Below the pieces are notes generated by a model. The model was not told the origin of the DNA. It worked only from the letters and a program-made list of their open reading frames with translations, and searched no databases. The position numbers and the translations under genes were made by a program. From NCBI RefSeq assembly GCF_963921235.1, contig NC_086108.1, forward strand, positions 20,708,001-20,772,000: DNA of 64,000 nt, in the 5' to 3' direction. Position 1 is the first letter of the stretch, and each line of letters starts with the position of its first letter. This DNA is from Mobula hypostoma (Eukaryota). Below, piece after piece: positions 2,311 through 63,711 of the stretch.

Positions 2311-3082
2311 GCTCCATGCACCAATGTTTCATTTACTCAAACAACAATCTTTTGGCCTCAACTTCCAAAAGAACACAGTATTGCTCCAATGCAAAGAGAA
2401 ATTGCTAGATTCTTTGTCGTGCCTGGTGGTCTGTTCCTTTGCAGATACACATGGTTCAGTCAAAACATTCCTATGTCTCAGCCATACTTTGGGCTTCTTG
2501 CTGGAGCCTTCTGGGTCAAATCAATGCATACCAAAATTAATACCTGCTCCAAGATTTTCACTAATGAGTTCCCAAAGGCAACAGCAGGTTCTTTCTTCAA
2601 AATTACATTTTAATGGAAAGAATTAAATAAACACAATATCTATCTAACAGATAAGCAAAAACAGAACTTTTACCATTCATTTAACATCTATAAATGTTTC
2701 ACATTTGATGTCCTCTGATATTACTGAGCAGGATAAAATTTCAAAATGATCATGAACCACATACTCTGCTCAGATTCTATATAAGATAACTATTTGAAAA
2801 GTTCCATATTTTCTGGTAAAATGTGGTGACAGCACACACAACAACCAGTATCTGGCTATTTCATCACAGTTATGCGATGTATCAGTGTGCAAATTGACAT
2901 CTGTTCGAAAGCACTTTGGTTCAGTATTCCATTGGCTGAAAAATACTTGAGAATTCTGAAGTTCTGTAAAGACAGTTTTTAATGGGGAGCACGAGGAATT
3001 CTGCGGATGCTGGAAATTCAAGCAACACACATCAAAGTGCTGGTGAACGCAGCAGGCCAGGCAGCATCTCTAGGAAGAGGTA

Positions 3083-3120
3083 CAGTTGACATTTCGGGCC
3101 GAGACCCTTCGTCAGGACTA
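3083..3120 (-). ncRNA. Minimal type I hammerhead ribozyme motif (partly decayed)
   Basis: UAGUC CUGACGA A GGG-UCUCGG-CCC GAAA UGUC AACUG: core and stem II intact, mismatch in stem I. Confidence 0.65.
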
Positions 3121-6100
3121 ACTGAAGGAAGAGCTAGTAAGAGATTTGAAAGTGGGAGGGGGAGGGGGAGGGATGGAGCCAATAGCTGGACAGGTGATTG
3201 GCAAAAGGGATATGAGAGGATCATGGGACAGGAGGCCCAGGGAGAAGGAAAAGCGAGTGGGGGGGGGAAGGGAACCCAGAGGATGGGCCAGGGGTATAGT
3301 CAGAGGGACAGAGGGAGAAAAAGGAGAGACACAGAAAGAATGTGTGTGTATATAAATAAATAAATAACGGATGGGGTATGAGGGGGAGGTGGGGTATTAG
3401 CGTAAGTTAGAGACGTCAATGTTCATGCCATCAGGTTGGAGGCTACCCATACGGAATATAAGGTGTTGTTCCTCCAACCTGAGTGTGGCTTCATCTTTCC
3501 AGTAGAGGAGGCCGTGGATAGACATGTCAGAATGGGAATGGGATGTGGAATTAAAATACGTGGCCACTGGGAGATCCTGCTTTCTCTGGCAGACAGAGCG
3601 TAGGTGTTCAGCAAAACGACCTCCCAGTCTGCATCAGGTCTCGCCAGTATATAGAAGGCCACATCGGGAGCACCGGATGCAGTATATCACCCCAGCCGAC
3701 TCACAGGTGAAGTGTCGCCTCACCTGGAAGGACTGTTTGGGGCCCTGAATGGTGGTAAGAGAGGAAGTGTAAGGCATGTGTAGCACTTGTTCTGCTTACA
3801 AGGATAAGTGCCAGGAGGGAGATCGGTGGGGAGGGATGGGGGGGACGAATGGACAAGGGAGTCGCGTAGGGAGCGATCCCTGCAGAAAGCAGACGGGGGG
3901 GGTGGAGGGAAAGATGTGCTTAGTGGTGGGATCCCGTTGGAGGTGGCCGAAGTTACGGAGAATAATATGTTGGACCCAGAGGCTGGTGGGGTGGTAGGTG
4001 AGGACCAGGGGAACCCTATTCCTAGTGGGTAGCGGGAGGATGGAGTGAGAGCAGATGTGCATGAAATGGGGGGGATACGTTTGAGAGCAGAGTTGAAAAG
4101 GAGGACATCTCCCTTGTCCTGGAATGAAAAGCCTCATCCTGAGAGCAGATGCGGTGGAGATAGAGGAATTGCGAGAAAGGGGTGGTATTTTTGCAAGAGA
4201 CAGGGTGAAAAGAGGAATAGTCCAGATAGCTGTGAGAGTCAGTAGGCTTATAGTAGACATCAGTAGATAAGCTGTCTCCAGAGATAGAGACAGAAAGATC
4301 TAGAAAGGGGAGGGAGGTGTCGGAAATGGACCAGGTAAACTTGAAGGCAGGGTGAATGTTGGAGGCAAAGTTAATGAAGTCAACGAGCTCAGCATGCACG
4401 CAGGAAGCATTGTTCCACAAAGCCAACAAAAAGGCAGGCATAGCTAGGACCCATATGGGTGCCCATAGCAACACCTTTGGTTTGGAGGAAGTGGGAGGAG
4501 CCAAAGGAGAAATTATTAAGAGTAAGGACTAATTCTGCTAGATGGAGCAGAGTGGTGGTAGAGGGGAACTGATTTGGTCTGGAATCCAAAAAGAAGCAGA
4601 GAGCTTTGAGACCTTCCTGATGGGGGATGGAAGTATATAGGGACTGGACATTCGTGGTGAAAATAAAGCGGTGGGGGCCAGGGAACTTAAAATCATCGAA
4701 AAGTTTCAGAGCGTGAGAAGTGTCACGAACATAGGTAGGAAGGGATTGAAACAAGGGGGGATAAAACCATGTCGAGGTATGCAGAAACGGGTTCGGTGGG
4801 GCAGGAGCAAGCTGAGACAATAGGTCTGCAGGACAGGCAGGTTTGTGGATTTTGGGTAGGAGGTAGAAACGGGAAGTGTGAGGTGTGGGAACTATAAGGT
4901 TGGTAGCAGTGGACGGGAGATCCCTTGAGCGGATAAAGTTGGTGATGATGTGGGAGACAATGGCCTGGTGCTCCTTAGCGGGGTCACGATCGAGGGGTAA
5001 ATAAAAGGAGGTATCCGCGAGTTGTTGCTGTGCCTTGGCACGGTAGAGGTCAGTATGCCAGACTATAACAGCACCCCACCTTATCGGCGGGTTTAATAGT
5101 AAGGTTAGGAGTAGTGCGGATGGAGTGGAGAGCAGAGCGTTTGGAAGGAGTAAGGTTGGAATGGGAACAAGGTGCGGTAAAGTCGAGACCATAGAAACTA
5201 CAGCACAGAAACAGGCCTTTGAGACGGTTGATGTCCCGTTGACAGTTAGCAATAAAGAGATCCAGAGCAGGCAGAAGACCAGAGTGGGGTGTCCATTAAG
5301 AGGAGGAGGGTTGAAGATGGGAGAAGGGGTCATCGGTGGGGGTGGAAGAGTCTGTGCCGAAGAAGTACGGATGGAGACGGCGTAAGAAGAGTTCCATGTC
5401 ATGGCAAACACAGAACTCGCTGAGGTGTGGGCAAAGGGGGACAAAGGTGAGGCCCTTACTGAGAACAGAGCGTTCTGCCTCCGACAGTTGAAGGTCGGAG
5501 GGGATGGTAAAGACCCGGCACGGATGAGAGCTGGGATCAGAGGGGGGAGGGGGGAGGCTGAGAGTGTCAGTGGAGAGGGTAGGGTTGGGGTGAGAGGAAG
5601 ATGGAGCCTCTGAGGGTCCAGGAGCTGACGGTGGGATCTGAGGGAGACGGGGTTGCAGAGTGGTGGTGGGGGAAGGGGAGATGGGAGTCACAATAGCAGC
5701 ACATAAAGACCCGGCCTGGAGTTCAAGGCTGGAGTCGCAGTTGGTGGTTGCGCAATCGCTGTGAAGGTGTCCATGGTCGTTGCTGGAGTCCGGGTTTTGA
5801 ATATGCCCTGTGGTGTTGGAGCCGGCGAGATCAGTGGCAGGGGCCGCAATCTGAAGTTCATGCGTGCTAGCATCAGGGCCAGCAGGCTCTGGGGTCTGCG
5901 GATGTAAGATCTTGTGATATTTGCCTAACATGACAAAGTCAAAAAAAAACGGCAATTGCAGGCATGGATCCGACCGAGGATGACCACACTACGGCCTCCC
6001 AGTGGCCACACATTTTAATTCCACATCCCATTCCCATTCTGATATGTCTATCCACGGCCTCCTCTACTGTAAAGATGAAGCCACATTCAGGTTGGAGGAA

Positions 6101-6392
6101 TAACACCTTATTTTCCGTCTGGGTGGCCTCCAACCTGATGGCATGAACATTGACTTCTCTAACTTCCGCTAATGCCCCACCCTCCCCTCGTACCCCATCC
6201 GTTATTTATTTATTTATTCCTCTTCTTCCCCCCCCTCCCTGGGCCTCCTGTCCCATGATCCTCTCATATCCCTTTTGCCAATCACCTGTCCAGCCTTTGG
6301 CTCCATCCCTCCCCCTCCTGTCTTCTCCTATCATTTTGGATCTCCCCCTCCCCCTCCCCCTTTTCAAATCTCTTACTAGCTCTTCCTTCAGT

Positions 6393-6430
6393 TAGTCCTG
6401 ACGAAGGGTCTCGGCTGGAAACATCGACTG
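6393..6430 (+). ncRNA. Minimal hammerhead ribozyme motif (stem II damaged)
   Basis: UAGUC CUGACGA AGGGUCUCGGCUG GAAA CAUC GACUG. Confidence 0.6.
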
Positions 6431-8759
6431 TACCTCTTCCTATAGATGCCTGGCCTGCTGCGTTCACTGGCACGTTGTGTGTTGCTTTTAATTGGGAGCT
6501 CTCTTCTTGTGGGTAAGAGCAAATACACCACCACAAAGATGTGTGTCTATACTGATAGAAAATAACATTGCTATCATCTGTTCTATGCTAGGAATACAAA
6601 ACAATTGACAGCTATATTCAAAGGAGAGCAAAAGAGTTCTTTACATATTCATTACAGTGTCCCCTGTTCATATTTATTCCATAATTAATGTCAGTAATAA
6701 AAAAATTACTTGGCAATTTATCCCATTATGTTAGACATATAGCAATGCATACACCTGGCTGTATCTATTACACTGAAGTAGTATATATACACTTCAGATG
6801 TACCTTGTGTTGTATGAAATTTGGTGAACCTCCCAAGTGCTATACTTTTGAGGTACAATGACTTTTTTATTATAATACATTTGGGAAGCTTGCAACAGGT
6901 CTAACAAACACCACAGAAGTTACTGGTATTGCTGCAATACCTAAGACCTCTCATTTCAACAACATATGGCCTCCAAACTGATTCTTCTATTATTATGATC
7001 TAATAAATGTTCTTCAATTTACTAAATGCACAAAGTCCTGTAAGGTACGTTGTAAGCTATTTTAAACCAGAACATTCATGAATCCTTGAACAATATCAGT
7101 GAATTATAATAATCAGCTGTCTTCCTCTGAATTAATGAGCAACACAAGCAGTTAATTCCTGCTTATAATTAACTAGACAGCTTAATTTAGATGTATATTT
7201 TTCCCAAATAATTAATAGCTTGATCTTAAAAAAAATGTATTCAAATATATTAATGCTGGAATTTAATTTTAAACTATGCTCTTCTGAGAATATAAACAAA
7301 GAAACATATTGAAAATTAGAACAGCTATTTGCCAAGAACTAAAAAAGACTCTTGATATCTAATCTCAGGTCCCATCTATGCTTCTTTGCATTTAGGTTAC
7401 AATAAAACCTCTGATCATCTCCCTTGGATGGCAGTTATATCAGAACACACAGTAAACACTGTCAACCCATGGTAGATGCAGTGGGCAACTTCAATGTTCC
7501 ATTCTTAAGCTTACGTCTTAGGCATTTTAATAATTTGGGCCACAAAACCTACTAAAACAATGAGAATCCAATTAGGCACAAGTAGCTTTCATTATTCAGT
7601 AACGTGATACTTACTTACAACAGTATTCCAGTATATTGATAATTACATTCAATTCAGTATAAAAATAATTTAAGTTAAAAACTGAAGCTCGGCATTATGC
7701 AAATATGTTATCAATCAATGAAATGCTAAACACCACAGCAACTGTTGAGGAATTTTGTTTCGGCCTCAAATTTAAACATGGTTTAGAATCTGTGGTCAGT
7801 GCTGAAGTAAAAATACTTTAACCTCAAAGCAAACAATAAAGATTGAGCATTTTCTATCGGGGAGGGGGAACTCCCCTTTTCGGAGGATGTCGACAATTGG
7901 CTCAAATGGGATTGCAGATGCCCTGCAGTTTTAATATTATCATATCATCCAATCCCACCCCTGTATCCTTTTAAAATAACAAACATCAACATCATTACTA
8001 AATAAGAATTCCCCAAGTCTTAGTGAATTCTCCATCTTCTCGGTTCTATTTCATAAAATTGTCATCTCTATCATGCACTCCACTCTTCCCATTCTAACAA
8101 TCATGACAGAGCTTCTAAATATGATAAACCCACTCACTTAAACCATTTTCCCTTTTGGCTTAAAGTCCATGCCTTGCTACATTACTCCTGATTTTCCAAA
8201 GTCTCGTTAAAATGTACCTTAAACCAGCTTTCCCCAATATTTACGTGCTAATTTGTGCATCACCTGGAAACTCTTCTCAACATTAAGGCTGCATTCCACA
8301 CTGCATACAAAATAAGAAAAATATACTGGAAATGACTTGAAACAGGATAACAGACTGAACCAAAGTTTTCTAACATTTTTCCTGATCTTTTTGCATCCAC
8401 TAGTCAAAACATTATATAACACTTACTGGAAAGGCAAACTCAGGAAGTTTATTTTTAAACTGCAAACCAAATTATTGTAGTTTTCACTCATGATTCACAA
8501 TATTTTATCCCATTCCAACTGATATAAGGATTTTAAAATACCAAATGATGCATTATTAAAGATAAGAGTGGAAAAAAATTAAAAGGCCTTGAAAATCTTG
8601 TCAAAATATTTAAAAGCCAAATAGACAAACATTTTCTACATAAACTACTCCCTGGGTGGGTCAGCTGCATATTGCACAAAGGGAATAAAACTCTTTACAT
8701 AAATGAAGTTTCCATTGTCATCCATGGTGGTATAATTACAACCATTTTTTTGACATATA

Positions 8760-10382
8760 GAGTGCCTATAAAAAAGCATTCATACTCCTTGGAAGTTTTC
8801 ATGTTTTATCGTTTTACAACATTGAATCACAGTGGATTTAATTTGGCTATTTTGACACTGATCAACAGGAAAGACTCTTTTGTGTAAAGTGAAAACAAAT
8901 TTCAACAAATTGGTCTAAATTTATTACAATTATTAAACACAAAATAATTGATTGCATTATTACTCACCCCTTTATGTCAGTATTTAGTAGATGCACCTTT
9001 GGCAGTAAATACAGCCTTTAGTCTGAGTGGATAGGTCTCTATCTGCTTTGCACATCCAGTCACTGCAATTTTTTCCCATTCTTCTTTACAAAGCTGCTCA
9101 AGCTGTCAGATTGCATGGGGATTGTGAGACAGCAACCCTTTTCAAGTCCAGCCACAAATTCTCATTTGGATTGAAGTGTGGATTCTGACTTGGCCATTCC
9201 AGGACATTAACTTTGTCGTTTTAAGCTGCTCCTGTGTAGCCTTGGCATTATACTTGGGTCATTGTCTTGCTGGAAAACAAATCTTCTCCTAAGACCCAGC
9301 TCTCTTGCAGTCTGCATCAGGTTTTCCTCCAGGATTTCCCTGCATTTTGCTGCATTCATTTTTCCCTCCACCTTCACAAGCCTTTCAGGGCCTGCTACAG
9401 TGAAGCATCTTCACAGCATGATGCAGCCACCACCAAGCTTTACAATAGGGATGGTGTGTTTTTGATGATGTGCGGTGTTTGGCTTATACTAAACATCGCG
9501 TTTAGTTTGATGGCCAAAAAGCTCAATTTTGGTTTCATCAGACCATAGAACCTTCTTCCAGCTGACTTCAGAGTCTCCTACATGCCTTCTGGCAAACTGT
9601 AGCTGAGATTTCATGTGAGTTTTTTTTCAACAGTGGCGTTCACTTTGCCACTCTCCCATAAAGCTGCAACTGGTGAAGTGCCAGGCAACAGTTGTTGATG
9701 TACAGTGTCTCCCATCTCAGCCCTGAAGCCTATAACTCCTCCACAGGTGACATAGCTTTCTTGGTGGGCCTCCCTCACTAGTCTCCTTCTTGCACGGTCA
9801 CTCAGTTTTTGAGGACAGTCTGCTCTAGGCAGATTTACACTGTGCCATATTCTTTCTATTTCTTGATGACTGACTTAACTGTGCTCCAAGGGATATTCAG
9901 TGACTTGAAATTTCCTGATATTCATCTCCTGACTTGTGCTTTTCAATAATCTTTTTGTTGAGTTGCTTGGAGTGCTCTTTTGTCTTCATGGTGAAGATTT
10001 TGCCAGGATACTGACTCACCAGGAGTTAGACCTTCCAGATGCAGGTCTGTTTTTACTACAATCTTCTTGACTCCAAAAACAGATCTCCATTTAACTAATC
10101 AAGTGACTTCTAAAACTGACTATACCAGTGATGATTTGGTGTGTTATATTAAAGTGGATGAATACTTATTCAATCAATTATTTTATGTTTTATATTTGTA
10201 ATTTATATCACTTTGCAGAGATCTGTTTTCACTATGACATGAGTCTTTTCTGTTGATCAGTGTCAAAAAAAAAAGCCAGATTAAATCCACTGTGATTCAA
10301 TATTGTTAAACAATAAAACATGAAAACATCCAAGCAATGGGGGGTGGGGGGGAGGCATGGTGAATACTTTTTATAGGCACTG
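8760..10382 (-). mobile_element. Tc1-family DNA transposon, full length, pseudogenised transposase
   Basis: Long (~200 bp) inverted repeats starting agtgcctataaaaa / tttttataggcactg, flanked by TA; minus-strand motifs WKKVLWSDET, VKLGGGCIML*, FQQDNDPK, EWPSQNPHFNPNENLW. Confidence 0.92.
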
Positions 10383-10482
10383 TATTAATTAAAAATGACA
10401 GGAGCACATCTGGCATGAATTAATAATCTTCATCAGGGAAGAGCAGAACATGCCTGAAAAATCAGATAGGCAGTATTTTTGA

Positions 10483-10565
10483 AAAACAAGGGAAAATCTT
10501 CAGATGCTGGAAATCCAAGCAACACACACAACATGCAGGAGTTGCTCCAGCATGTTGTGTGTGAT
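10483..10565. mobile_element. 83 bp Penelope-terminus foldback mini-element
   Basis: Penelope tail plus 19 bp inverted arms 10523-10541 / 10545-10563; TSD gcagtatttttga 10470-10482 / gtagtatttttga 10566-10578. Confidence 0.75.
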
Positions 10566-11654
10566 GTAGTATTTTTGACCAACTTCAAGAAAGGAATTCA
10601 AGTCATCATTGCAAGGATTGCCCCACTAGCTGTCAAAGAGAAAGTCATGACAGAGTTTTCCTTAATTAGCACTCTATATTTCTAAATGGTTTATGGCAAT
10701 GTGGATTCTGCCTGTCAAGAGGCACCCTGAGTGTGTTTGTCACCATGTAACAAATTCTAGAGGGAAACAGCAAAGATGGCACCTAATGCAAAACAAATAA
10801 AACTGCAATCTGAAATCTGAAACAAAAGCAAAAAAAAAATGCTGCAAGAACCCAGCCAGTCTCAGTGAAAAGAGAATTCCAGGTAATATTTCAAGTTGAA
10901 GATGCTTCATCGCATGAATGATCTTCAATCGATGAAATTTACTGTTTTTTCATCTATAATTGCTGCTTGAATGATGCACCTAACTTCTCTGACCTAACAA
11001 ACACCTTCAATTTCATCAACCAATTAGAAAAATAGAGAATCCTTTTTGAATATACCTACCCTCATAAATCTATGACCATTCTTCACTTACAATCTTAGTC
11101 AACAGACACAATCCAGTGTAGCATGAAACTAGGTGAGTATATAACAATGCTACCCCCTTAATCTCCCTCAGTGAAAATACTTCACCTCACCTCCAACGTA
11201 TTTCCAGATGGAGTGGTGTTAATCTACAATACATACAGGAAATTATTTAACATTCCTCATCTTTGTCCCAGTATAAAAATTACATCAATGTCTGTCAGTG
11301 AGTTAATATGAGAAATAGAACACAAGCAAGGCATTTGCCCCCCCCCCCCCCCAATCCCCCCACTCCATCACATTATAGCTGATCTCTAATCTTGTACCAG
11401 GAAGCTACACAATTCTGGTATCCCTTGATTTTCTGCTATTTAAAAATCTATCAGTCCCTGCCGTGAATGTACTCAGTGACTGATCCTTCAATGCCTTCTT
11501 CGTTAATGAATTTCAAAGATTCACCACCGTCTGGATGAAGAATTGTTTCCCCCAATTCTGTTATGAATGGCCAATTCATTATTATAAGGGTGTGACTACT
11601 TGTTCCTGACATGTATCTATAGGAAACATCAACCTCACCAAGCCCCTTAAAAAG

Positions 11655-13345
11655 CTCAAAGTGAATTTATTATCAAAGTACATACATGTCACCATGAATG
11701 GCCCTGAGATTCATTTTCATTTTCTTTTAGGTATACTCAATAAATCCATAATAGAATAATAACTATAACAGAATCAATGAAAGACCACTTGGGTGTTCAA
11801 TGAATGTACAAAAGACAACAAACTGAAACTACAAAAAGAAAGAAATAATATAATAATAAGTAAGCTATAAATATCAAGAACATGAGATGAAGAAAGTGAG
11901 TCCATAGTTGTGGGAACATTTCAATAAGGGCAAGAGAAAGTGAGTGAAGTTAACCCCTTTAGTTCAAGAGCCTGATGGGTAGTAAGTGTTCTTGAGCCTG
12001 GTGGTATTATGAGTTCTGAGGCTCCTTTACCTTCTGATGGCAGTGGTGAGAAGAAAGCATGTCCTGGGTGGTGGGAGTCTCTGTTGATGGATGCTACTTT
12101 CCTGCAATGTTTCATGCAGACGTGCTCAATGGTGGGGAAGGCCTTACCCATGATGGACTGGGCCATATCCACCACCTTTTGTAGTAGTTTCTTTTCAAGG
12201 GCATTGCCAATCCAAACCAATTGGAGTCTGCAAGTGAGGAGATCAAGGATCCAATTGCATAAGGAAATATTGAGGCCTAGGTCTTGGAGCTTAATGATTA
12301 GCTTTGAGGGAATGATGGTATTGAATGCTGAGCTGTAATCAATAAAGAGTACCCTGATGTATGCATCTTTGATGTTAGATGTTCCAAAGTTGAGTGAAGA
12401 GCCACTGAGATGGCATTCTGCTGTGGACTTGTTGCTTTAGTAGGCAAGTTGGAGCATATCCAAGTTGCTTCTCAGGCAGGAGTTGATATGTTTCCTCACC
12501 AACCTCTCAAAACACTTGATCACTGTGGATGTAAGTGCTATTGAACGATAGTCATTGATGCAGGTTAGGTTAGATTAGATTAGATTGAGGACACTCAGTC
12601 CTTGTTTATTGTCATTTAGAAATGCATGCATTAAAAAAATGATACCATGTTCTTCCAGTATGATATCACAGAAACACAAGACTGACCAAGACTAAAACTG
12701 ACAAAAACCACATAATTATAACATATAGTTACAACAGTGCAAAGCAATACCGTAATTTGATAAGAGCAGACCATGGGCACGGTAAAAAAAAAAGTCTCAA
12801 AGTCCCGATAGCCCCAACATCTCACGCAGACGGTAGAAGGAAGAAACTCTCCCTGCCATGAGCTTCCAGCACCGCAAACTTGCTAATGCAGCACCCTGGA
12901 AGCACCCGACCACATTCTGACTCTGAGTCCGTCCGAAAACTTCGAGCCTCCAACACCGAGCACCGACTCTGCCGAGTGCTTTGGCCCCGGCCCCGGCCAA
13001 GCAACAGGCAAAGCCGAGGATTCGGTGCCTTCCCCTCCGGAGATTCTGGATCACACAGTAGCAGCGGCAGCGAAGCAGGCATTTCAGAAGTTTCACCAGA
13101 TGTTCCTCCGTGCTCTCCCATCTGCCTCTATCAAATCAGAATTGTGCATGGCCTCCTACTTAACAGATTGCAGATATTCATCACCGGAGAGGCCGTGCGT
13201 GCTGTGTCACGCCGCCCTCTTCTCCTCCTCCCGACATCTTAGCACCATGGGAACAGGTTACCATATTCTTTTTAGGCACTGGTATAATTGAAGCCTGCTT
13301 GAAGCAGGTGGGTACCTCAGACTGCCAAAGTGAGAGGTTAAAAAT
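11655..13345 (-). mobile_element. Decayed Rex1/Babar LINE interrupted by 12568-13253
   Basis: ORF pieces LQKVVDMAQSIMG and PTCFKQASIIPVPKK; tail gataataaa. Confidence 0.8.
12568..13253 (-). mobile_element. Non-autonomous SINE-like retroelement with (TCTAA)n tail
   Basis: 7 bp TSD caggtta 12561-12567 / 13254-13260; CpG-rich 5' half; tgacaataaac 3' motif like the Rex tails; no recognisable ORF. Confidence 0.65.
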
Positions 13346-13784
13346 GTAAATTTCAATGAAATGACCTCTCAATCTTCTAAACGAGAATTCAGCCCTGGTC
13401 TGCTATATCTCCTCATGATACAAATGGCCCATCAAAGAAATCAATGCAGCACTCTCTCTATTCAAGTAAATCCTTCCCTGTTAAATACCATCTTGCCCAC
13501 ATGTGGTAGTCGGCTGATACTGCACAGGACCCCACAACCACCTCAGAACACACAAATAGAGTGGAAAACAGTCATTCTCAGCCTGCAAACTTCAGGAATT
13601 CCACATGAATACAAAATCCTGAAACTAATATCAAACAACCCTGCCAAATTAACAGTAATGCTCCACCAGATAACTCCAAAAGAGTACTAAAATCAAAGAA
13701 GGCGATTGCTGAGGTTCTCCAATGCTTGGGAATACTCCTTACAACTGCTCACATATCTTATGTCAGTTTAGACTTTAATAAGGC

Positions 13785-15570
13785 AACAAACACAGGAGCA
13801 GAATTAGGCCATTTGATCCATCAAGTCTGGTTTGACATTCGATCATGCTGATTCATTTTCCGTTTCAATATCATTCTTGTGTTCTTCTCTACATAACCTT
13901 TAACATACCTACAAATCAAGAGCTTATCAACCTTTGCTTTAAATACATTCAATGACTTGACCTCCACAGTCGACAAAGCGATGAATTCCACAGATTCACC
14001 ACCCCTCTAACTTATAGAAATACCTCCTTGTCTATGTTGTAAAGGGATGTCCTTCTATCCTGAGGCTGTTCCTTTGGGCCCTAGACTTCCCCATGATTGG
14101 AAATATCTTCATGTCCAATATTCAGTAGGTTTCAATGAGATACCCCCTCATTCTTCTAAACCCCAGAGCCATCAAACACTCCTTATACATTAACCCATTC
14201 ATTCCAGGGATCATTCTCATAAACCTCCTCTGAACACTCTCCATTGCCTGCACATCCTTTCTTTGATAAGCGGACAAAATTGCACAATACTCCATGTGCG
14301 GTCTGGTCAATTTGTTATATATTCTAGCCCGCTGGAAACAAATGCTAACATTGTATTTGCCTTCTGCAGACTTCCTGATTCATCATCATTACTGCCCCTC
14401 GGCCTATCTTGGTACCATGTATAAACTTGGCCACAAAGACATCAATTCTGTCATCCATATCATTAATATATAATGTGAAAATTAGTGGACCCAATACTGA
14501 CACCTGCAGAATACCACTAGTCACTAGAAGCCAACAAGAAAAGGCCCTCTTGATGCCCGCGCTTTGCCTCCTGCCTGTCAACAATCTTCTGTCCGTGCTA
14601 GTATCTTTCCTGCAATACCATAGGCTCTTATCTTGTTTAGCTGCCTCACGTGCAGCACGTTGTCAAATGCCTTCTGAAAATCCCAATACGTAACAACCAC
14701 TGACTCTCCTTCGTCTGTCCTGCACTTTATTTCCTGAAATAATTTCAACAGCTTTATCAGGCAAGATTTCTCCAAAACCTCATCCTTAATAATGGACTCT
14801 TAACATTTTGTCAAACACTGAAGTCATGCTAACTGGCTTGTAGTTTCCTGTCTTTTGCCTTCCTCCCTTCTTTTAAAAAGTGGAGACACCTTTACAATTT
14901 TCCATTCCTCTGGAACCGTTCTAGAATCTAGTGATTCTTGAATGATCTTACTAATGTCTCCACTATCTCTTCAGATACCCTTTTCAAAACTCTGGTATGT
15001 AGTCCATCTGAGCCATGTAACTTACCTACCTTCGTACCTCTCAGCTTCTCAGACACCTTCTCCTTGGGTGATGGTGTCTACACACACTTCTGCATCCTAA
15101 CATTCTCAAATTTCTAGTGTGCTACTTGTGTTTGTTATTTATTTAGTGATATAGCATGGAGCAACCCTTCCGGCCCTTCAAGTCACACTGCTCAGAAACC
15201 CCATAAACCCAATAAATCCTAATCTAATCATGGGACTATTTACAATGACTTGGTATGTCATTGCAGCATGGGAGAAAACCAGAGCAGTGCACGGATTCGT
15301 TGGGGAGGACGTGAAGAGACTTAGTACAGAATAGTTCCGGAACACCCCAAGCTGTAATAGCATTGCACTAACCGCTACACTACTATGACATCACAATGAA
15401 TACTATTGCAAAATATGAATTCAGTTCATCTGCCATTTTTTGTCCCCCACTACTACCTCTCCAGTATCATTTTCCAGTAGTGCAATGTCCATTCTTGTTT
15501 CTCATTTACTCTTTATATATCTGAAAAAAAAACTTCTGGTATCTCCCTTTATATTATTGGCTAGCTTACC
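13785..15570 (-). mobile_element. Decayed CR1 LINE (contains SINE 15130-15386)
   Basis: DFQKAFDNV, SVLGP, FVAKF, RPHMEYC, VQRRFMRMIPG remnants. Confidence 0.8.
15130..15386 (-). mobile_element. tRNA-derived SINE
   Basis: Minus-strand head gtagtgtagcggttagtgcaatgctattacagc (A-box like, similar to 1670-1705); CR1-like tail ending in taaataaataa. Confidence 0.6.
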
Positions 15571-15579
15571 TTCATATTT

Positions 15580-17400
15580 CATAGAGCTATAGAACACCAC
15601 AGCACAGAACCAGACGCCTTAGCCCATCTAGTCTGTGCCAAACTATTAATCTGCCTAGTCCCATTGACCTGCACCAGTACCATACCCCTCCCATCCATGT
15701 ACCTGTCCAAATTTCTCATAAATGTTGAAATAAAACCTGCATCTACCACTTGCACTGGCATAAACACAAGAAAATCTACAGATACTGGAAATCTAAGCAA
15801 CAGACCCAAAATGCTGGAGGAACTCAGCAGGCCAGGCAGCATCTATCGAAAAGAGTAAATAGCAACGTTTCAAGCCAAGACCCTTCATCAGCACTCGCAC
15901 TGACAACTCATTTCACACTCTCACCACCCTCTGAGTGGAGAAGTTCTCCCTCATGTTCCCCTTAAATATTTCACCTTTCACCCTTAACCCATGACCTTTA
16001 ATTCTAGTCTCACCCAACCTCAGTGGAAACATGCTGTTTGCATTTACCCTTCCTAATTTTGTATACCTCTCAAAACTCCCATCATTCTTCTATGCTCTAT
16101 GAAATTAAGTCCTAATCTATTCAACCTTTCCCTATTACACAGGTCAAGTCTTGGCAACATTTGTCGAAATTTTGTTAAACTCTTTCAATCTTATTGACAT
16201 CTTTTCTGTGGGTACGTGACCAAGACTGCACACAATACTCTAAATTAGGACTCACCAACGTCTTGTACAACTTCAGCATAATATGCTAAAGTCTATACAC
16301 AATACTTTGATTTACGAAGACCAATCTGCCAAAGGCACTCTGGCATCCTATGTACCTGTAATAGCACTTTCAAGGAATTATGGATCTGTATTCCCAGATC
16401 CCTCTGTTCTACCGCACTCCTCAGTATCCTATTGCTCACTGTGTTAAGTCCCACCCTGGTTTGTCCTCCCAAAGTGCAATACCTCACACTTGTCTGTATT
16501 AGATCCTACTGTCCATTTTTCAGCTCATTTTTCCACCTGCTCTCGATTCTGCTGCAAGCTTTGATAGCCTTCCTCGTCATACCCCCCCCCACCCCCATTT
16601 TGGTGTCATACACAAATTTGCTGATCCAGTTTACCACATAATCATCCAGATCATTGATATGGATGATAAACATTAACGGACCCAACACCAATCCCCAAGG
16701 CACACCACTAATTACAAGCCTCCAGTAAGAGAGACAACCATCTACTACCACTCTCCTACAAAGCCAATGTCCAATCCAATTTATGACTCTTTATATATCT
16801 GAAAAAAAACTTTTTTACCTCATTTATTTTTACCAAATTTATTACCTCATTTTGAATGCTAAGTGACTGACCTTCTTGACCAACTTCTTATGCAGGACCT
16901 TGTCAAAGGCCTTGCTAAAGCCCATGCAGACAACATCCACTGCCTTTCCTTCATTACCTTTCCTTGTAACGTCCTCAAAAAAAACTCTGTAAGATTGGTT
17001 AGATTTTCTTACCGTGCACAAAGCTGTATTGACTTTCCCTAATCAGTCTGTGTCGATCCAAATACTTGTACATCTGGTCTCTTTGAATACTATCCAATAA
17101 TTTACCCATTGCTGATGTTAGGCTCGCCAGCCTATAATATCCTGGCTTATTCTTACATATTTTCTTAAACACTGGAACAACATCAGCTATCCTCTAATCC
17201 TTTGGTACCTCACCTGTGGATAAGGATGTTTTAAATATCTCTGCTAGGACCCTTCCAATTTTTGCACTAGCCTCACACAGGTTCCAAGGGAACTTATTGT
17301 CAGGCCTTGGAGTTATTCATCTTAATTTGCCTCAAGACAGCAAACACCTCTTCCTCTGTAATCTGTATATGATCCATGACCTCACTGCTGCTTTGCCTCA
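15580..17400 (-). mobile_element. Decayed CR1 LINE
   Basis: SGVPWGLVLGP, ISKFVYDTK, QRDLGIQIHNSLKV; CR1-type 3' tail at 15580-15720. Confidence 0.82.
15761..15891 (-). mobile_element. Solo Penelope pseudo-LTR starting at the hammerhead core
   Basis: Minus strand starts CTGATGAAGGGTCTTGGCTTGAAACGTT and ends with the tail; TSD cacttgcactggca 15747-15760 / cactcgcactgaca 15892-15905. Confidence 0.78.
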
Positions 17401-18299
17401 CTTCTTGACTAATCTTCCTTCAACCATGACACTTGTGATGCACACAACGACATCACTGCCAAGTTCTAACTGTGTGAGGTAGTTCAGAGATAATGGAAGA
17501 GCATAATCGATTTCACAATTCACAATTCTGGGTCAGGGCTTTGCTGGCTGAAGCCAGAGGAAGTGAGGTGTCCCAATCGTACAGTTCAGTTACATTGTTC
17601 TAAACTCTGCCATTGCTCAGAAATTTGCTGGTTGGTCCTGGAATAAAGTGTTTGTAAGATCAATCCACTAGAGCCAGAAATTGCAATTCAAGGAAATGTG
17701 TAAGTGGAGGGGATGGGGGAAGGACAGCAGCAAGTTTGTGTTCTGGGCCCCACTATGGAAAATCCAGGCCGCAAAGTGAAATTTAATGAGATTTACACAA
17801 AAGCTGATACTACTCTTGTCTAATTTGATCTTCAACCTACATCATTCTAGAGTAATATTTCTCGTTTAGAGAACAAGATAGAGTTTACATTACTCATCAA
17901 ATAAGGAAGGTTATCAGCTGGGATTCACAACATACCTGCCAGCAAATATACCCATAATTGCTTACATCTCATGGAGGCTGTATTGCTGACTTCCTTCAAG
18001 CAGCTCACCGGTTGTAAGATTTCCATGCTTTACGGTATACAACAAAGGTCTGAACTTCTGCCCATCTCCCAGCTCTCAAAGTGATAAAGCTATCTGCTGG
18101 ATGTACACCAACATAACACTTGCAGTAAACCTATTATAATTAAAGGGTAAACTACCTAGCGGGAGAAAATTTTGATTTGATTTAAATAAGTTTTAAGTTT
18201 TTTGGAGAAGTGTGTTTTATTCTTTACAAATAAAATTATTTATAGGAATTAATGTTTGTGAATACCTAAGGTATTTAGAAAAACTCAATTTAAATAGCA

Positions 18300-18826
18300 G
18301 ATTTTACAGTGTCTTCATTAGGAGTTTGAAGTAATTTGGTATGTCACCAAACACTCTTAACAAATTTCTACAGATGTACCATGGAGCACGTTCTGATTGG
18401 TTGCATCATCACCTGGTATGGAGGCTCCAATGCACAAGATTGAAACAGCTCATAGAGGAATGTAGACTGAGCCAGCTCCATCACGGCACAACCCTCCCCA
18501 CCGTCAAAGACATTTTAAAAGGTGGTGCCTCAAGAAGGCAGTATAAATCATTAAGGACCCTCACCATACAGCACACACCCTTTTCTTATTACAAATATCA
18601 GGGAGGAAGTACAGGAGCCTGAAGATACACATTCAACATTTTAGGAATAGCTTCCATCAGATTTCTGAACAGTCCATCAACTCACGAATATGACCTCACT
18701 CCTGCTCTTTTGCACTGTATTGTTTTTATTTGTAACTTACAGTAATCTTTAAAAATGTCTTAACTCTATTGCTTCAATAAATCACAAAGTTCACAAAGTA
18801 TGTCAGTGAGAATAAACCTAATTCTC
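18300..18826 (+). mobile_element. Rex1/Babar LINE 3' fragment
   Basis: Similar to the 3' parts of the copies at 53990-54170 / 55328-55690; tail gagaataaacctaattct. Confidence 0.75.
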
Positions 18827-19025
18827 ATGAGCAGGCGCTTCACTATTGTCAACATCAGTGTAGCCAGATACTTGCACTGTACTTTGTTCGCCTCAACCCG
18901 ACACAAACTTCTACTCAAGATTTATCAACCGAAATTAACATTTACTGTTCTATTTCTATGCAAGCAACATACATCAAAGTTGCTGGTGAACGCAGCAGGC
19001 CAAGCAGCATCTATAGGAAGAGGCG

Positions 19026-19063
19026 CAGTCGACGTTTCAGGCCGAGACCCTTCGTCAGGACTA
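19026..19063 (-). ncRNA. Minimal type I hammerhead ribozyme
   Basis: UAGUC CUGACGA AGG-GUCUCGG-CCU GAAA CGUC GACUG: intact core, stem I, stem II and GUC cleavage triplet. Confidence 0.8.
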
Positions 19064-19355
19064 ACTGAAGGAAGAGTGAGTAAGGGATTTGAAAGCTGGA
19101 GGGGGAGGGGGAGATGCAAAATGATAGGAGAAGACAGGAGAGGGAGGGATAGAGCCGAGAGCTGGACAGGTGATAGGCAAAAGGGGATACAAGAGGATCA
19201 TGGGACAGGAGGCCTAGGGAGAAAGACGGGGGGGGGGTGACCCAGAGGATGGGCAAGAGGTATATTCAGAGGGACAGAGGGAGAAAAAGGAGAGTGAGAG
19301 AAAGAATGTGTGCATAAAAATGAGTAACAGCTGGGGTACGAGGGGGAGGTGGGGC

Positions 19356-20628
19356 CTAGCGGAAGTTAGAGAAGTCAATGTTCATGCCATCAGGTTGGAG
19401 GCTACCCAGACGGAATATAAGGTGTTGTTCCTCCAACCTGAGTGTGGCTTCATCTTTACAGTAGAGGAGGCCGTGGATAGACATGTCAGAATGGGAATGG
19501 GATGTGGAATTAAAATGTGTGGCCACTGGGAGATCCTGCTTTCTCTGGCGGACAGAGCGTAGATGTTCAGCAAAGCGGTCTCCCAGTCTGCGTCGGGTCT
19601 CACCAATATATAAAAGGCCACATCGGGAGCACCGGACGCAGTATATCACGCCAGTCGACTCACAGGTGAAGTGATGCCTCACCTGGAAGGACTGTTTGGG
19701 GCCCTGAATGGTGGTAAGGGAGGAAGTGTAAGGGCATGTGTAGCACTTGTTCCGCTTACACGGATAAGTGCCAGGAGGGAGATCAGTGGGGAGGGATGGG
19801 GGGGACGAATGGACAAGGGAGTTGTGTAGGGAGCGATCCCTGCAGAATGCAGAGAGAGGGGGGGAGGGAAAGATGTGCTTAGTGGTGGGATCCCGTTGGA
19901 GGTGGCGGAAGTTACGGAGAATAATATGTTGGACCCGGAGGCTGGTGGGGTGGTAGGTGAGGACCAGGGGAACCCTATTCCTAGTGGGGTGGTGGGAGGA
20001 TGGAGTGAGAGCAGATGTACGTGAAGTGGAGGAGATGCGTTTAAGAGCAGAGTTGATAGTGGAGGAAGGGAAGCCCCTTTCTTTAAAAAATGAAGACATC
20101 TCCCTCGTCCTAGAATGAAAAGCCTCATCCTGAGAGCAGATGCGGCGGAGACGGAGGAATTGCGAGAAGGGGATGGCGTTTTTGCAAGAGACAGGGTGAG
20201 AAGAGGAATAGTCCAGATAGCTGTGAGAGTCAGTAGGCTTATAGTAGATATCAGTGGATAAGCTGTCTCCAGAGACAGAGACAGAAAGATCTAGAAAGGG
20301 GAGGGAGGTGTCGGAAATAGACCAGGTAAACTTGAGGGCAGGGTGAAAGTTGGAGGCAAAGTTAATAAAGTCAACGAGTTCTGCATGCGTGCAGGAAGCA
20401 GCGCCAATGCAGTCGTCGATATAGCGAAGGAAAAGTGGGGGACAGATACCAGAATAGGCACGGAACATAGATTGTTCCACAAACCCAACAAAAAGGCAGG
20501 CATAGCTAGGACCCATACGGGTGCCCATAGCTACACCTTTAGTTTGGAGGAAATGGGAGGAGCAAAAGGAGAAATTATTAAGAGTAAGGACTAATTCCGC
20601 TAGACGGAGCAGAGTGGTGGTAGAGGGG
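19356..20628 (-). pseudogene. 5'-truncated Penelope ORF: RT C-terminal half + Cys linker + GIY-YIG endonuclease
   Basis: GVAMGTRMGPSYA, RYIDD, YYKPTD, CKRNKCYTC, VIYCVRCSRCGLLYIGET...RFAEH; uninterrupted to the stop but lacking the N-terminal RT motifs. Confidence 0.9.
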
Positions 20629-21884
20629 TGCTCCGTCTAGCGGAATTAGTCCTTACTCTTAATAATTTCTCCTTTTGCTCCTCCCATTTCCTCCAAACTA
20701 AAGGTGTAGCTATGGGCACCCGTATGGGTCCTAGCTATGCCTGCCTTTTTGTTGGGTTTGTGGAACAATCTATGTTCCGTGCCTATTCTGGTATCTGTCC
20801 CCCACTTTTCCTTCGCTATATCGACGACTGCATTGGCGCTGCTTCCTGCACGCATGCAGAACTCGTTGACTTTATTAACTTTGCCTCCAACTTTCACCCT
20901 GCCCTCAAGTTTACCTGGTCTATTTCCGACACCTCCCTCCCCTTTCTAGATCTTTCTGTCTCTGTCTCTGGAGACAGCTTATCCACTGATATCTACTATA
21001 AGCCTACTGACTCTCACAGCTATCTGGACTATTCCTCTTCTCACCCTGTCTCTTGCAAAAACGCCATCCCCTTCTCGCAATTCCTCCGTCTCCGCCGCAT
21101 CTGCTCTCAGGATGAGGCTTTTCATTCTAGGACGAGGGAGATGTCTTCATTTTTTAAAGAAAGGGGCTTCCCTTCCTCCACTATCAACTCTGCTCTTAAA
21201 CGCATCTCCTCCATTTCACGTACATCTGCTCTCACTCCATCCTCCCACCACCCCACTAGGAATAGGGTTCCCCTGGTCCTCACCTACCACCCCACCAGCC
21301 TCCGGGTCCAACATATTATTCTCCGTAACTTCCGCCACCTCCAACGGGATCCCACCACTAAGCACATCTTTCCCTCCCCCCCTCTCTCTGCATTCCCCAG
21401 GGATCGCTCCCTACACAACTCCCTTGTCCATTCGTCCCCCCCATCCCTCCCCACTGATCTCCCTCCTGGCACTTATCCGTGTAAGCGGAACAAGTGCTAC
21501 ACATGCCCTTACACTTCCTCCCTTACCACCATTCAGGGCCCCAAACAGTCCTTTCAGGTGAGGCATCACTTCACCTGTGAGTCGACTGGCGTGATATACT
21601 GCGTCCGGTGCTCCCGATGTGGCCTTTTATATATTGGTGAGACCCGACGCAGACTGGGAGACCGCTTTGCTGAACATCTACGCTCTGTCCGCCAGAGAAA
21701 GCAGGATCTCCCAGTGGCCACACATTTTAATTCCACATCCCATTCCCATTCTGACATGTCTATCCACGGCCTCCTCTACTGTAAAGATGAAGCCACACTC
21801 AGGTTGGAGGAACAACACCTTATATTCCGTCTGGGTAGCCTCCAACCTGATGGCATGAACATTGACTTCTCTAACTTCCGCTAA
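20629..21884 (+). pseudogene. 5'-truncated Penelope ORF, mirror copy
   Basis: 418 aa open frame with the same motifs; two amino-acid differences noticed against the left arm. Confidence 0.9.
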
Positions 21885-22177
21885 TGCCCCACCTCCCCCT
21901 CGTACCCCAGCTGTTACTCATTTTTATGCACACATTCTTTCTCTCACTCTCCTTTTTCTCCCTCTGTCCCTCTGAATATACCTCTTGCCCATCCTCTGGG
22001 TCACCCCCCCCCCGTCTTTCTCCCTAGGCCTCCTGTCCCATGATCCTCTTGTATCCCCTTTTGCCTATCACCTGTCCAGCTCTCGGCTCTATCCCTCCCC
22101 CTCCTGTCTTCTCCTATCATTTTGCATCTCCCCCTCCCCCTCCAGCTTTCAAATCCCTTACTCACTCTTCCTTCAGT

Positions 22178-22215
22178 TAGTCCTGACGAAGGGTCTCGGC
22201 CTGAAACGTCGACTG
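22178..22215 (+). ncRNA. Minimal type I hammerhead ribozyme
   Basis: tagtc ctgacga agggtctcggcct gaaa cgtc gactg; predicted cleavage after C22210. Confidence 0.8.
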
Positions 22216-24103
22216 CGCCTCTTCCTATAGATGCTGCTTGGCCTGCTGCGTTCACCAGCAACTTTGATGTATGTTGCTTGAATTTCCAGCATCTGCAGAA
22301 TTCCTGTTGTTTTTATTTCTATGCAACATGGCTTTCCTCCAACTCCTGCTCACCTTGTTGGGGGCTGTAAAGTACCCCGTAGTGTAATAGCTATATTATT
22401 CCTTCTTTAACCAAATGGATTGTCCTCATTACCACCTTAGGGAAAATCTAGCTCTCCAGTAATGAAATATCAACTTTTAATTTTGCAACTTACTTTTACC
22501 TTTCTAGTTTTAACATCTGTCCGGCAACAAAAAGCTTATTCATGTAATTTTTCTGTTTCACTTAACCCCACATTATAACATTTCATCAATTATTTATGTT
22601 TGCATCTCATGAAATATATTCATCACATTGTATTTTAAACCTGCAGCTAGTTGCCTTAGTTTGTTTTGTAGCTTCGTATATTCCTGCTTGACACAAATCC
22701 ATATTGCGCAGCCACTGACAGTGTAAAGTCAGTTTCAGTTCATACCTTACAGCATCAATTCAATGTACTGTCAGTGTGGTATAAATACCAGTAAACTTTC
22801 CTAAAGGACACAATCCCAGTTCGATGTACAAACTGTCTGTCTAATGGTGGGGGTGCATTCCCAAAAAAATTATCAATATCATGTTGACAAGAAGTACTAA
22901 TTTACTTTAATTTTTCACAAATTTTCTGACAGTGATATTTTTTATTGAATAACTCAGATCTTTTGGTAATGATTTGTGAATTTCCCAAAGATAAATTTCT
23001 GTTACCCCATTACTGCAACACTGGGGTCACCTATATAAGGAATTACTCACCATATTTGATTATCAAATGATAAGACTTCTCTGAACAACAGTAAAAATAA
23101 GAGTTCTTGAAAGTAAAGAAACAATATCATTAAAGGAATGAACTTCACATGACCTACGATTAAGTTCCCTGATAGAACATGTAAAAAGCCACTATGTTTT
23201 GGGCAATCTTAGTCTGCAATTGACTTGTCTGAATAAGGAGGCACTCTTGCTTTCAGTAGACTATCTGGGCACACAATTACAGCACAGAAACAGGCCATCT
23301 CGGCCCTTTTAGTCCGTGCTGAATGCTTACTCTCACCTAGTCCCATCTACCTGCACTCAGCCCATAACCCTCCATTCCTTTCCTGTCCATATACCTACTC
23401 AATTTTTTTTAAATGACAAAATCGAACCTGCCTCTACCACTTCTACTGGAAGCCTGTTCCACACAGCTACCACTCTCTGAGTAAAGAAGTTCCCCCTCGT
23501 GTTACCCTTAAACTTTTGCCCCTTAACTCTCAACTCATGTCCTCTTGTTTGAATCTCCCCCACTCTCAATGGAAAAAGCCTATCCATGTCAACTCTAACT
23601 ATCCCCCTCATAATTTTAAATACCTCTATCAAGCCCCCCCCCCCCCCAACCTTCTATGCTCCAAAGAATAAAGACCTAACTTGTTCAACCTTTCTCTGTA
23701 ACTTAGGTGTTGAAACCCAGGTAACATTCTAGTAAATCTCCTCTGTACTCTCTCTATTTTGTTGACATCTTTCCTATAATTCGGTGACCAGAACGATACA
23801 CAATACTCCAAATTTGGCCTCACCAATGCCTTGTACAATTTTAACATTACATCCCAACTCCTATACTCAATGCTCTGATTTATAAAGGTCAGCATACCAA
23901 AAGCTATCTTCAGCACCCCATACACATGAGATTCCACCTTCAGGGAACTATGCACCATTATTCCTAGATCACTCTGTTTTACTGCATTCCTCAAAGCCCT
24001 ACCATTTAACATGTATGTCCTATTTTGATTAGTCCTGCCAAAATGTCGCACCTTACACTTATCAGCATTAAACTCCATCTGCCATCTTTCAGCCCACTCT
24101 TCT

Positions 24104-24310
24104 CACAACATGTTGGGGAAGTCAGCAGGTCCGCAGCATCCGTGGAAATGATGAGTCAATGTTTCGGGCTGGAACCCTTCGTCAGGAAATGGGGTTATGA
24201 CCCGAAACGTTGACTGATCGTATCCACGAATGCTGCCCGACCTGCTGACTTCCTCCAGCATGTTGTGAGTGTTGCTTTGACCCCAGCATCTGCAGAGTAT
24301 TTTGTTTACG
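24104..24310. mobile_element. 207 bp Penelope-derived foldback element with hammerhead-like motifs on both strands
   Basis: Inverted arms cacaacatg...gcagcatccgtgga / tccacgaatgctgc...catgttgtg; tail on the right; TSD agcccactcttct 24091-24103 / agcctactcttct 24311-24323. Confidence 0.82.
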
Positions 24311-24672
24311 AGCCTACTCTTCTAACTGGCCTAAATCTCTCTGCAAGCTTTGAAAACCTGCTTCATTATCCACAATGCCACCTATCTTAGTATCATCTGC
24401 CTACTTACTAATCCAATTTACCACACCATCATCCAGATCATTAATGTATATGACAAACAACATTGGACCCAGTACAGATCCCTGAGGCAAACCCCTAGTC
24501 ACCGGCCCCCAACCTGACAAACAGTTATCCACCACTACTCTCTGGCATCTCCCATCCAGCCACTGCTGAATCCATATTGAACCTTCCTAACTAACCTTCA
24601 GTGTAGAACCTTGTCAAAGGCCTTACTGAAGTCCACATAGACAACATCCACTGCTTTACCCTCGTGAATTTT

Positions 24673-29904: not shown

Positions 29905-29953
29905 AATTATCTCTGGAGACAAAACAGTTCCTTTCAGCGTTCTCCGAATCAAC
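29905..29953 (+). other. ANGPTL1: 5' UTR part of the ANGPTL1 first coding exon
   Basis: Acceptor tcttcttttacag ends at 29904 with an upstream ctaat branch-like motif; ATG at 29954. Confidence 0.65.
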
Positions 29954-30788
29954 ATGAATTCATTCAGCTGGACTTTGTGTCTGTTGTTAATTAGTTTCAT
30001 GACTACAGGAGGCAAGAGGGAACAACATCAAGCCAGAACCAACATTGCAGTACATTCTGTTGTTCATAACCGCTACAGACGTTCACCTAATAGCAGCAAC
30101 AAATGTTCCTACACGTTCTTGGTCCCAGATCAAAGGATAACTGGTCCAATCTGTGTCAGTTCAAAGGGGCCAGAAAGGAATTATAATGGAATAACTAGGA
30201 TGGATGTGGAGGACTTAAAGGACATTATGTCCAAACAGAAACGGCAAATTGAAAACCTTGAACTCTTAGTGGAGGTGGATGGCGGCGTTGTAAATGAGGT
30301 AAAATTGCTACGAAAGGAGAGTCGGAATATGAATTCACGTGTAACACAGCTTTATATGCAGCTTCTCCATGAGATTATTCGTAAAAGGGACAACTCACTG
30401 GAAATTTCACAGCTAGAGAACAAAGTTCTTAATTCCACAGCTGAAATTCTGCAAATGGCCACGAAGTATAGACAACTGGAACAGAAGTATGCAGTACTGT
30501 CTACTCTTGTTAATAATCAGTCTGTAGTCATAACTAAATTGGAGCAGGAATGCATTCGTAGCCTTACTCCAAGAGAATATGAGCCACCACCCCTTGTACA
30601 AGTTGTACCACAGTCCATACCACGTAGCAGGCAATACCAGAGCAATTTGTTTGGTAGTAATGAAATACAAAGAGATCAAAATCCTGCATTTACACGAGAA
30701 CGGGGGCTTCGCTCCAGAGCATCCTTGCATGAACCTTCTCCTACAACTGCCAGTTCTTTGGAATCATCAGTTACCGAAGAGCCCGATG
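29954..30788 (+). CDS. ANGPTL1: Angiopoietin-related protein 1, first coding exon (signal peptide + coiled coil)
   Basis: KCSYTFLVPDQRITGPICV, ITRMD, NEVKLLRKESRNMNSRVTQLYMQLLHEIIRKRDNSLE, LVNNQSV, PPLVQVVPQ, NEIQRD match ANGPTL1 better than ANGPTL2 from memory; phase-1 donor G|gtaggt at 30789. Confidence 0.92.
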
Positions 30789-63601: not shown

Positions 63602-63711
63602 CATACATCAAGGTTGCTGGTGAACGCAGCAGGCCAAGCAGCATCTATAGGAAGAGGTGCAGTCGACGTTTCAGGCCGAGACCCTTCATCAGGACTAACT
63701 GAAGGAAGAGT
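63602..63711 (-). mobile_element. Solo tail-less Penelope pseudo-LTR fragment
   Basis: Near-identical to 18968-19077; flanked by atattagtct 63592-63601 / 63720-63729. Confidence 0.85.
63660..63697 (-). ncRNA. Minimal type I hammerhead ribozyme
   Basis: UAGUC CUGAUGA AGG-GUCUCGG-CCU GAAA CGUC GACUG. Confidence 0.8.

Follow-up and report, generated by a model that had tools for sequence, protein, structure and literature searches.

One-tailed inverted pairs of a Penelope-like element in Mobula hypostoma are consistent with priming from both ends of a staggered target

Penelope-like elements (PLEs) that carry an endonuclease (EN+ PLEs) leave unusual insertions. The parts of the published reports on which we draw describe partial tandems with an adjoining inverted, 5′-truncated copy for Pen2a_Av and its relatives (PMC3846280), for Naiad and the canonical clades (PMC8557442) and for Penelope of D. 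virilis (PMC2377424), with a tail of 30 to 40 nt at one end only and one target site duplication (TSD) round the unit. In A. vaga the pseudo-long terminal repeats (pLTRs) are inverted, one of them bears the tail, and self-priming was proposed as their source (PMC3846280). An inverted copy with a one-sided tail has been called typical of PLEs, and an in vitro system was called for to explain the origin of both traits (PMC8557442); pairs of hammerhead motifs on opposite strands, 100 to 700 bp apart, have also been reported (PMC4209133). Here we analyzed a 64,000-nt stretch of the Mobula hypostoma genome (NC_086108.1, positions 20,708,001 to 20,772,000; hereafter the window), which contains four PLE insertions, A to D, with this same architecture, and compared them with further copies across the 3.48-Gb genome, in which genome-wide counts were made with exact-match patterns.

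In twin priming of the long interspersed nuclear element (LINE) LINE-1 (L1), reportedly described by Ostertag and Kazazian in 2001, both target 3′ ends prime on one RNA and give head-to-head complementary DNAs (cDNAs) flanked by a TSD. The second primer is said to start at variable sites upstream of the first cDNA, the arms being adjacent segments and not copies of each other. Unlike in L1 twin priming, the starts observed here are fixed 37 nt apart, with the second endpoint near -31 in the element coordinates given below, and the same sequence is copied twice. Another likeness is PAc, the Poseidon element of Anolis, for which the main text of the in vitro study describes two internal start sites of reverse transcription that bound the tail, cleavage and extension of both strands, an AT-rich target, an upstream hammerhead and a predicted dimer (PMC11167929). 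PAc differs in belonging to another clade without the CX2-5CxxC linker and in showing no homology at the start site, as against a weak bias at one end here; the main text gives no stagger and does not assign the start sites to opposite ends of a single target, a pairing on which its Figs S1-S2 may bear, and the steps after initiation were left unvalidated (PMC11167929).

The architecture (PMC3846280, PMC8557442) and the use of two start sites in vitro (PMC11167929) are thus already in the literature. New here are three findings: the target bias has two-fold symmetry, the two arms share a single haplotype, and in unequal long pairs it is mostly the tail-less arm that is longer. Where the published descriptions are qualitative in the parts cited ("often," "optionally") and give TSDs of 8 to 10 bp in A. 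vaga (PMC3846280, PMC8557442), thousands of pairs were counted here, with fewer than 1% double-tailed, TSDs of 13 to 15 nt, symmetric target bias and arm-length polarity. We hold it somewhat probable that each pair results from one event, in which both strands are nicked and each 3′ end primes at its own fixed start site on the same RNA. Our literature search found no paper that counts the one-tail rule, describes a symmetric target or models PLE priming from two ends; the older Arkhipova 2006 and Evgen'ev and Arkhipova 2005 may contain part of this.

In the window sequence, all four insertions have the element 3′ end pointing outward at both junctions, one tailed and one tail-less, and all are flanked by 13- to 14-bp duplications, as an earlier note on this DNA had claimed: 14 nt with 1 mismatch for A (2991-6485), 13 nt with 1 mismatch each for B (10483-10565) and D (24104-24310), and 13 nt, exact, for C (18964-22313). 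When flanks were swapped between loci as a control, the best "TSD" reached 10 nt at most in 60/60 trials. Of the overlaps with the target that had been listed at the tail-less ends, tt (A), caa (C) and ct (D) were found, whereas the g of B holds only if a mismatch is accepted. Two single-ended copies, absent from the earlier list, indicate that the signature is common and not universal. The insertions and single-ended copies are as follows.

2977 to 2990: left TSD copy of insertion A, 14 bp
2991 to 5983, minus strand: tailed arm of A, about 3 kb of a decayed PLE copy, with the 3′ end and tail at 2991
5984 to 5995: 12-nt filler at the head-to-head junction of A
5996 to 6485, plus strand: tail-less arm of A
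6486 to 6499: right TSD copy of A, 1 mismatch
10470 to 10578: insertion B, of an older subfamily; 13-bp TSDs occupy 10470-10482 and 10566-10578, and between them (10483-10565) lie the tailed arm on the minus strand and the tail-less stub on the plus strand
15762 to 15895, minus strand: single-ended tailed copy, older subfamily
18951 to 18963: left TSD copy of insertion C, 13 bp, exact
18964 to 20628, minus strand: tail-less arm of C, extending 17 nt beyond its partner in the element's 5′ direction
20629 to 22313, plus strand: tailed arm of C
22314 to 22326: right TSD copy of C
24091 to 24323: insertion D (24104-24310), of an older subfamily, between 13-bp TSDs (24091-24103 and 24311-24323)
63603 to 63711, minus strand: single-ended copy, tail-less, whose short duplication (about 10-11 nt) was identified by eye

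The arms of C differ at 6 of 1,649 positions and form a near-perfect palindrome. Those of A, which is older than C, differ from each other at 34/441 columns and share 18 bases against C over the same 441 columns. The four insertions represent different subfamilies and ages, B and D coming from older subfamilies, and D sits in a LINE-like repeat whose other copies have the TSD word once.

The following features of the element lie in the tailed arm of C.

20629 to 21884, plus strand: C-terminal part of the PLE open reading frame (ORF), with the reverse transcriptase (RT) core (YIDD), a CX4CX2C linker and a GIY-YIG endonuclease with an internal CxxC
22179 to 22214, plus strand: minimal hammerhead-like motif (AGTC / CTGACGA / stem II / GAAAC GTC / GACT), identified by eye
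22276 to 22313, plus strand: tail of about 37 nt between the two modal 3′ endpoints

Pfam matched the protein to RVT_1 (E=1e-5) and GIY-YIG (E=3e-4), both with scores just below the curated cut-off; 126 relatives of at least 745 aa carry RVT_1, and a subset of them GIY-YIG as well. As in EN+ PLEs, VIYCVRCSRCGLLYIG followed by histidines is present, and RT and GIY-YIG domains occur with a partial-tandem pLTR, an inverted truncated copy and a 30- to 40-nt tail. The linker CKRNKCYTC, between RT and endonuclease, fits the CX2-5CxxC of the Neptune and Nematis clades. By the motif definitions quoted from PMC8557442, the element is thus classified as a Neptune/Nematis-type PLE. The loci checked yielded no uninterrupted ORF. 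Element coordinates (c) refer to a natural copy, L141, and start from c=0 at window position 22306, the last G of GAATTCCTG; L141 is a partial tandem in which a truncated copy runs through the tail into the ORF, the 3.5-kb unit having a tail-less end. The hammerhead-like core motifs, at about c-127 to -92, were recognized by eye from a published minimal hammerhead, as described in the part of PMC4209133 used here, and an Rfam search returned no hammerhead. The sole Rfam match, MIR1523, lies at the centre of palindrome C and was discarded as a chance effect of the hairpin.

The genome contains 64,745 matches to a 30-nt motif of the element 3′ end and 9,858 to the 43-nt tailed end. We sampled 97 of the first 100 tailed ends listed on contig C1, each with 8.2 kb upstream, two of which belong to one insertion. 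An inverted arm abutted 57/97 of these ends, a TSD of at least 11 nt was present at 50 of the 56 paired insertions (52 counting two read by eye), and a single one of the 56 was double-tailed, without a TSD. Thirty ends chosen by a body motif, 13 tailed and 17 tail-less (one re-classed by eye), comprised 10 asymmetric pairs, 1 double-tailed and 0 double tail-less pairs, 14 single-ended copies and 2 unresolved cases; extrapolation from these 10 insertions per 30 ends suggests a total on the order of 20,000 insertions. Inverted pairs also made up 13/40 long copies. The paired insertion is therefore a routine outcome, as the earlier note had supposed, but about 40 to 65% of insertions are single-ended. 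About a third of the single-ended copies (13/38 and 8/23) retain a TSD.

Within one spacing class, at least 4,459 short pairs in the genome face outward; one-sided tails account for 4,528 matches and two-sided tails for 28, in counts obtained with slightly different motifs that are not nested sets. With independent ends, about 840 to 1,100 double-tailed pairs would be expected, versus the 28 observed (<1%). Exactly one arm was tailed in 35/35 sampled pairs (of 50 listed), 33 of which had a TSD of at least 11 bp. Older subfamilies gave 1,147 pairs, 954 one-sided tail matches and 9 double-tailed matches; a script called 15 of their loci as 12 one-tailed, 2 untailed and 1 double-tailed, and by eye the three exceptions were decayed or mis-called. 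None of the 28 double-tailed loci has a TSD and many lie within larger palindromes or composite copies, which indicates a different kind of event. In three double-tailed loci (L180, L194, L196) the host flanks are mutually inverted too, forming PLE-centred palindromes that reach into host DNA.

The ends of genomic copies fall into two fixed modes. Most tail-less ends are found between c-23 and -39 (mode -31) and most tailed ends between +1 and +15 (mode +6), and 0/112 further ends fell between c-22 and -2. Of 48 pairs analyzed, the 39 standard ones with a TSD were used to measure microhomology; 3 more failed to anchor. At the tail-less end the overlap with the target averaged 1.5 nt, compared with 0.8 in simulated blunt joins (p=2e-4), and was zero in 11/39 pairs. 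This overlap appears real because TSD length stays constant with it (slope -0.06, versus 0.57 for chance extension); 31 independent pairs gave a mean of 1.7 and a slope of 0.17. Microhomology at the tailed end (mean 1.2 versus 0.7) was not accepted as priming, since its slope of 0.64 resembles chance extension. The proposal of internal priming by microhomology thus stands as a genuine bias, but a weak one. A second fixed start site with a weak microhomology bias is the better reading of the tail-less end, because single-ended copies stop at the same place (-31) and because, according to the main text of PMC11167929, a purified PLE initiates at the two boundaries of the tail without target homology.

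Among TSDs of at least 11 nt, 72/86 measure 13 to 15 nt, in support of a fixed staggered cut of 13 to 14 nt; the earlier note had proposed about 13 nt. Paralogous repeat copies served as empty sites: 27 of 59 sites had no related copy, and at 30 of the 32 testable ones the duplicated word occurs once, the other 2 (L153, L244) being ambiguous. For insertion D, 33/36 matches were exact with a single word. The duplications therefore did not pre-exist. The flanks display a mirror-image bias, with A at -8, -7 and -3 and T at +3, +7 and +8. These positions were picked in 43 sites (161/258 matches, background 0.285), and the bias recurred in 43 independent sites (151/258 matches, same background, p ~1e-23). 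Such symmetry is the trace expected of a two-fold symmetric nuclease.

The two arms of a pair carry the same haplotype. At a column with three alleles, 0/34 pairs were discordant, versus 67% under random pairing, and over four columns 8/137 cells were discordant versus 51% at random; 4/23 double-tailed pairs were discordant at the three-allele column. Arm-to-arm divergence (0.4 to 5.6%) equals that from the nearest other copies of like age, which makes ongoing gene conversion an unlikely cause of arm similarity, and the partner arm was the nearest copy for 11/34 arms. Gene conversion at the time of insertion is a possible source of the similarity.

Arm lengths are coupled and polarized. The 49 simple pairs comprise 38 short-short, 10 long-long and 1 mixed, and in the long-copy sample 6/13 pairs were mixed, the long arm always being the tail-less one. 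In 29 hand-tallied long pairs, A and C included, the tail-less arm was longer by more than 100 nt in 20, the tailed arm was longer in 3 and the two were within 100 nt in 6, so that the tail-less arm is the longer in 20/23 unequal pairs (p=5e-4). Filler is present at 25/48 inner junctions. In L063 the filler comes from the part of the element that lies 3′ to the tail, indicating that this template extended past the start site. Six insertions (L224, L230, L060, L108, L151 and L262) consist of at least three pieces, with extra inverted or repeated internal segments; L224, L230, L108 and L151 each still lie within one TSD, which points to template jumps during synthesis.

At both junctions of a pair, the target 3′ end is continued by antisense element sequence, i.e., by cDNA. 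Folded back on itself, a tailed cDNA cannot yield a longer tail-less arm, and a tail-less cDNA cannot supply a tail; two priming events are therefore favored. The proposal of priming from both target ends with head-to-head joining is thus supported. One RNA copied by a leading and a trailing RT would account jointly for the asymmetry, the coupling and the polarity, and we lean toward this account. A two-fold symmetric, presumably dimeric, protein-RNA complex would nick the target on both strands 13 to 14 nt apart, leaving 3′ overhangs, and both 3′ ends would then likely prime on one RNA, their start sites separated by about 37 nt. Of the two RTs, the one at the upstream site would lead, while the one at the tail site would trail, displace the first cDNA and seldom get further. 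Both would usually stop near the hammerhead 5′ edge, probably the end of the RNA, before end-joining unites the cDNA ends through 2 to 5 nt of microhomology, bluntly or with filler. Priming at one end alone would give a single-ended copy, tailed or tail-less, and the insertions would be dead on arrival.

Several observations weigh against this account. Three long pairs, insertion A among them, have the longer tailed arm. Filler-free inner junctions show 2 to 5 nt of microhomology in 13/23 cases versus 17% in simulations, and the arms end within 10 nt of each other in 21/49 simple pairs, both of which fold-back predicts too. The haplotype agreement would be equally expected from two RNAs of one locus if one master is active per cell. 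The target bias is present in single-ended copies (66/126) but weaker on one side, and it was not seen in 8 old insertions (16/48 matches). Finally, the in vitro work concerns another clade, and its dimer, in the text cited, is a prediction only (PMC11167929).

The strongest alternative is that two separate RNAs from the same source locus are used by unequal subunits, one starting at the tail site and the other, earlier, at the upstream site. With one active master per cell, this explains the asymmetry, the TSD, the symmetric target and the shared haplotype equally well, dispenses with strand displacement and allows the three pairs with a longer tailed arm. By itself it leaves the coupling of lengths unexplained, with 1 mixed pair in 49, and nothing would fix the roles of the subunits unless the RNA were common to both. 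We regard it as unlikely, though deserving of serious attention.

Fold-back or self-priming, in which one cDNA, or an antisense transcript in the published hypothesis (PMC3846280, as far as cited), serves as its own template and the resulting hairpin is ligated to the other target end, gives both arms the same haplotype and predicts near-equal arms and excess inner microhomology. From a tailed cDNA, however, it cannot produce the longer tail-less arm seen in 20/23 unequal long pairs, and a tail-less cDNA offers nothing from which a tail could be copied. At 25/48 inner junctions there is filler instead of a paired turn, and single-ended copies stop at the same -31 site without a hairpin. Later central deletions could blur the lengths but give no reason for their bias. 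As a general route, which the earlier note had offered as its alternative, fold-back is not supported and appears improbable; the measured rules argue against the self-priming model in the form cited from PMC3846280 and give exact predictions for the existing assay.

Both ends might instead start at the tail site, one tail being removed later by the endonuclease, the "EN-mediated resolution" of PMC8557442 as worded in the part cited. Strict asymmetry and a sharp second endpoint would follow, and the start sites mapped in vitro are those of a Poseidon rather than a Neptune-type element. However, two start sites were directly seen in vitro, as the main text of PMC11167929 reports, and the tail-less overlap lies within a TSD of constant length, as if the target end paired there when priming; we consider this resolution very improbable. 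Two independent insertions at one site, a later rearrangement or an assembly artefact would suit the rare double-tailed pairs, with their missing TSDs, palindromes or composites and discordant alleles, but is scarcely credible for asymmetric pairs, which have one TSD round both arms, a shared haplotype, strict asymmetry, single-copy empty sites and arms that differ like copies of their age.

The preferred account, with two RTs on one RNA, can be extended to PLE integration at large. A two-fold complex at a palindromically biased target, a 13- to 14-nt stagger and two RTs in tandem on one RNA, 37 nt apart, would make the tail a measure of active-site spacing and inverted repeats the normal full product, distinct from both the target-primed reverse transcription of LINEs and L1 twin priming. 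We see the case for this wider model as evenly balanced. The PLE process is in any event a bulk source of long inverted repeats, and so of potential hairpins and double-stranded RNA, in this genome.

The short forms share a preferred 5′ end. Of 134 5′ ends, 94 lie within c-179, with a peak at -120 to -129, where the hammerhead has its 5′ edge, and 0 in -180 to -259. The predicted ribozyme cut (-96) is not where short copies start; 58/134 ends fall at -110 to -139. The pile-up at the hammerhead edge suggests an RNA end, judged from sequence. At the same place, near c-150 to -129 (window 22156-22177), L141 has a pyrimidine tract ending in CAG. The interval also contains branch-point-like and initiator-like words. 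Initiator-like words or a splice acceptor are candidate sources of the putative RNA end, and for D. virilis a splice acceptor at helix I is noted in the part of PMC4209133 consulted. Three long copies (one ending at window 5983, L143 and L224) are 5′-truncated at nearly one point, c ~ -3070 to -3095, possibly a second preferred RNA or cDNA end.

The earlier suggestion that the small versions form a mobilized non-autonomous family was not borne out. All 38 short inner junctions compared are distinct (38/38), indicating that the short forms are one-off products, and genome-wide, with as many as 2 mismatches allowed, the junctions of B and D each occur once, although the age of these copies makes this a weak test. 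No short unit amplified with a common junction or as a tandem array, in the manner of miniature inverted-repeat transposable elements (MITEs) or retrozymes, was found. The short forms are hairpin-shaped like MITEs, but they are not copied as units. Like the retrozymes described in the portion cited of bioRxiv 10.64898/2026.07.22.740005, they are short, non-coding and derived from a PLE terminal repeat with a hammerhead; the non-LTR retrozymes there are tandem head-to-tail families, whereas the present short forms are inverted and have individual junctions.

The window contains other repeats. A hairpin with 155-nt arms at 33518-33839, unrelated to the PLE, lies between 17-nt direct repeats, in a region that resembles a decayed DNA transposon. 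Three LINE-like sets (42632-43374 / 54480-55223; 24758-25747 / 57725-58706; and 1224-1402 / 44017-44438 / 59997-60418) are in inverted orientation with 91 to 97% identity, 11 to 43 kb apart, and represent either young dispersed copies or local inverted duplications. At 29888-30802, a 304-aa open frame without a Pfam match resembles the first coding exon of an angiopoietin-like gene.

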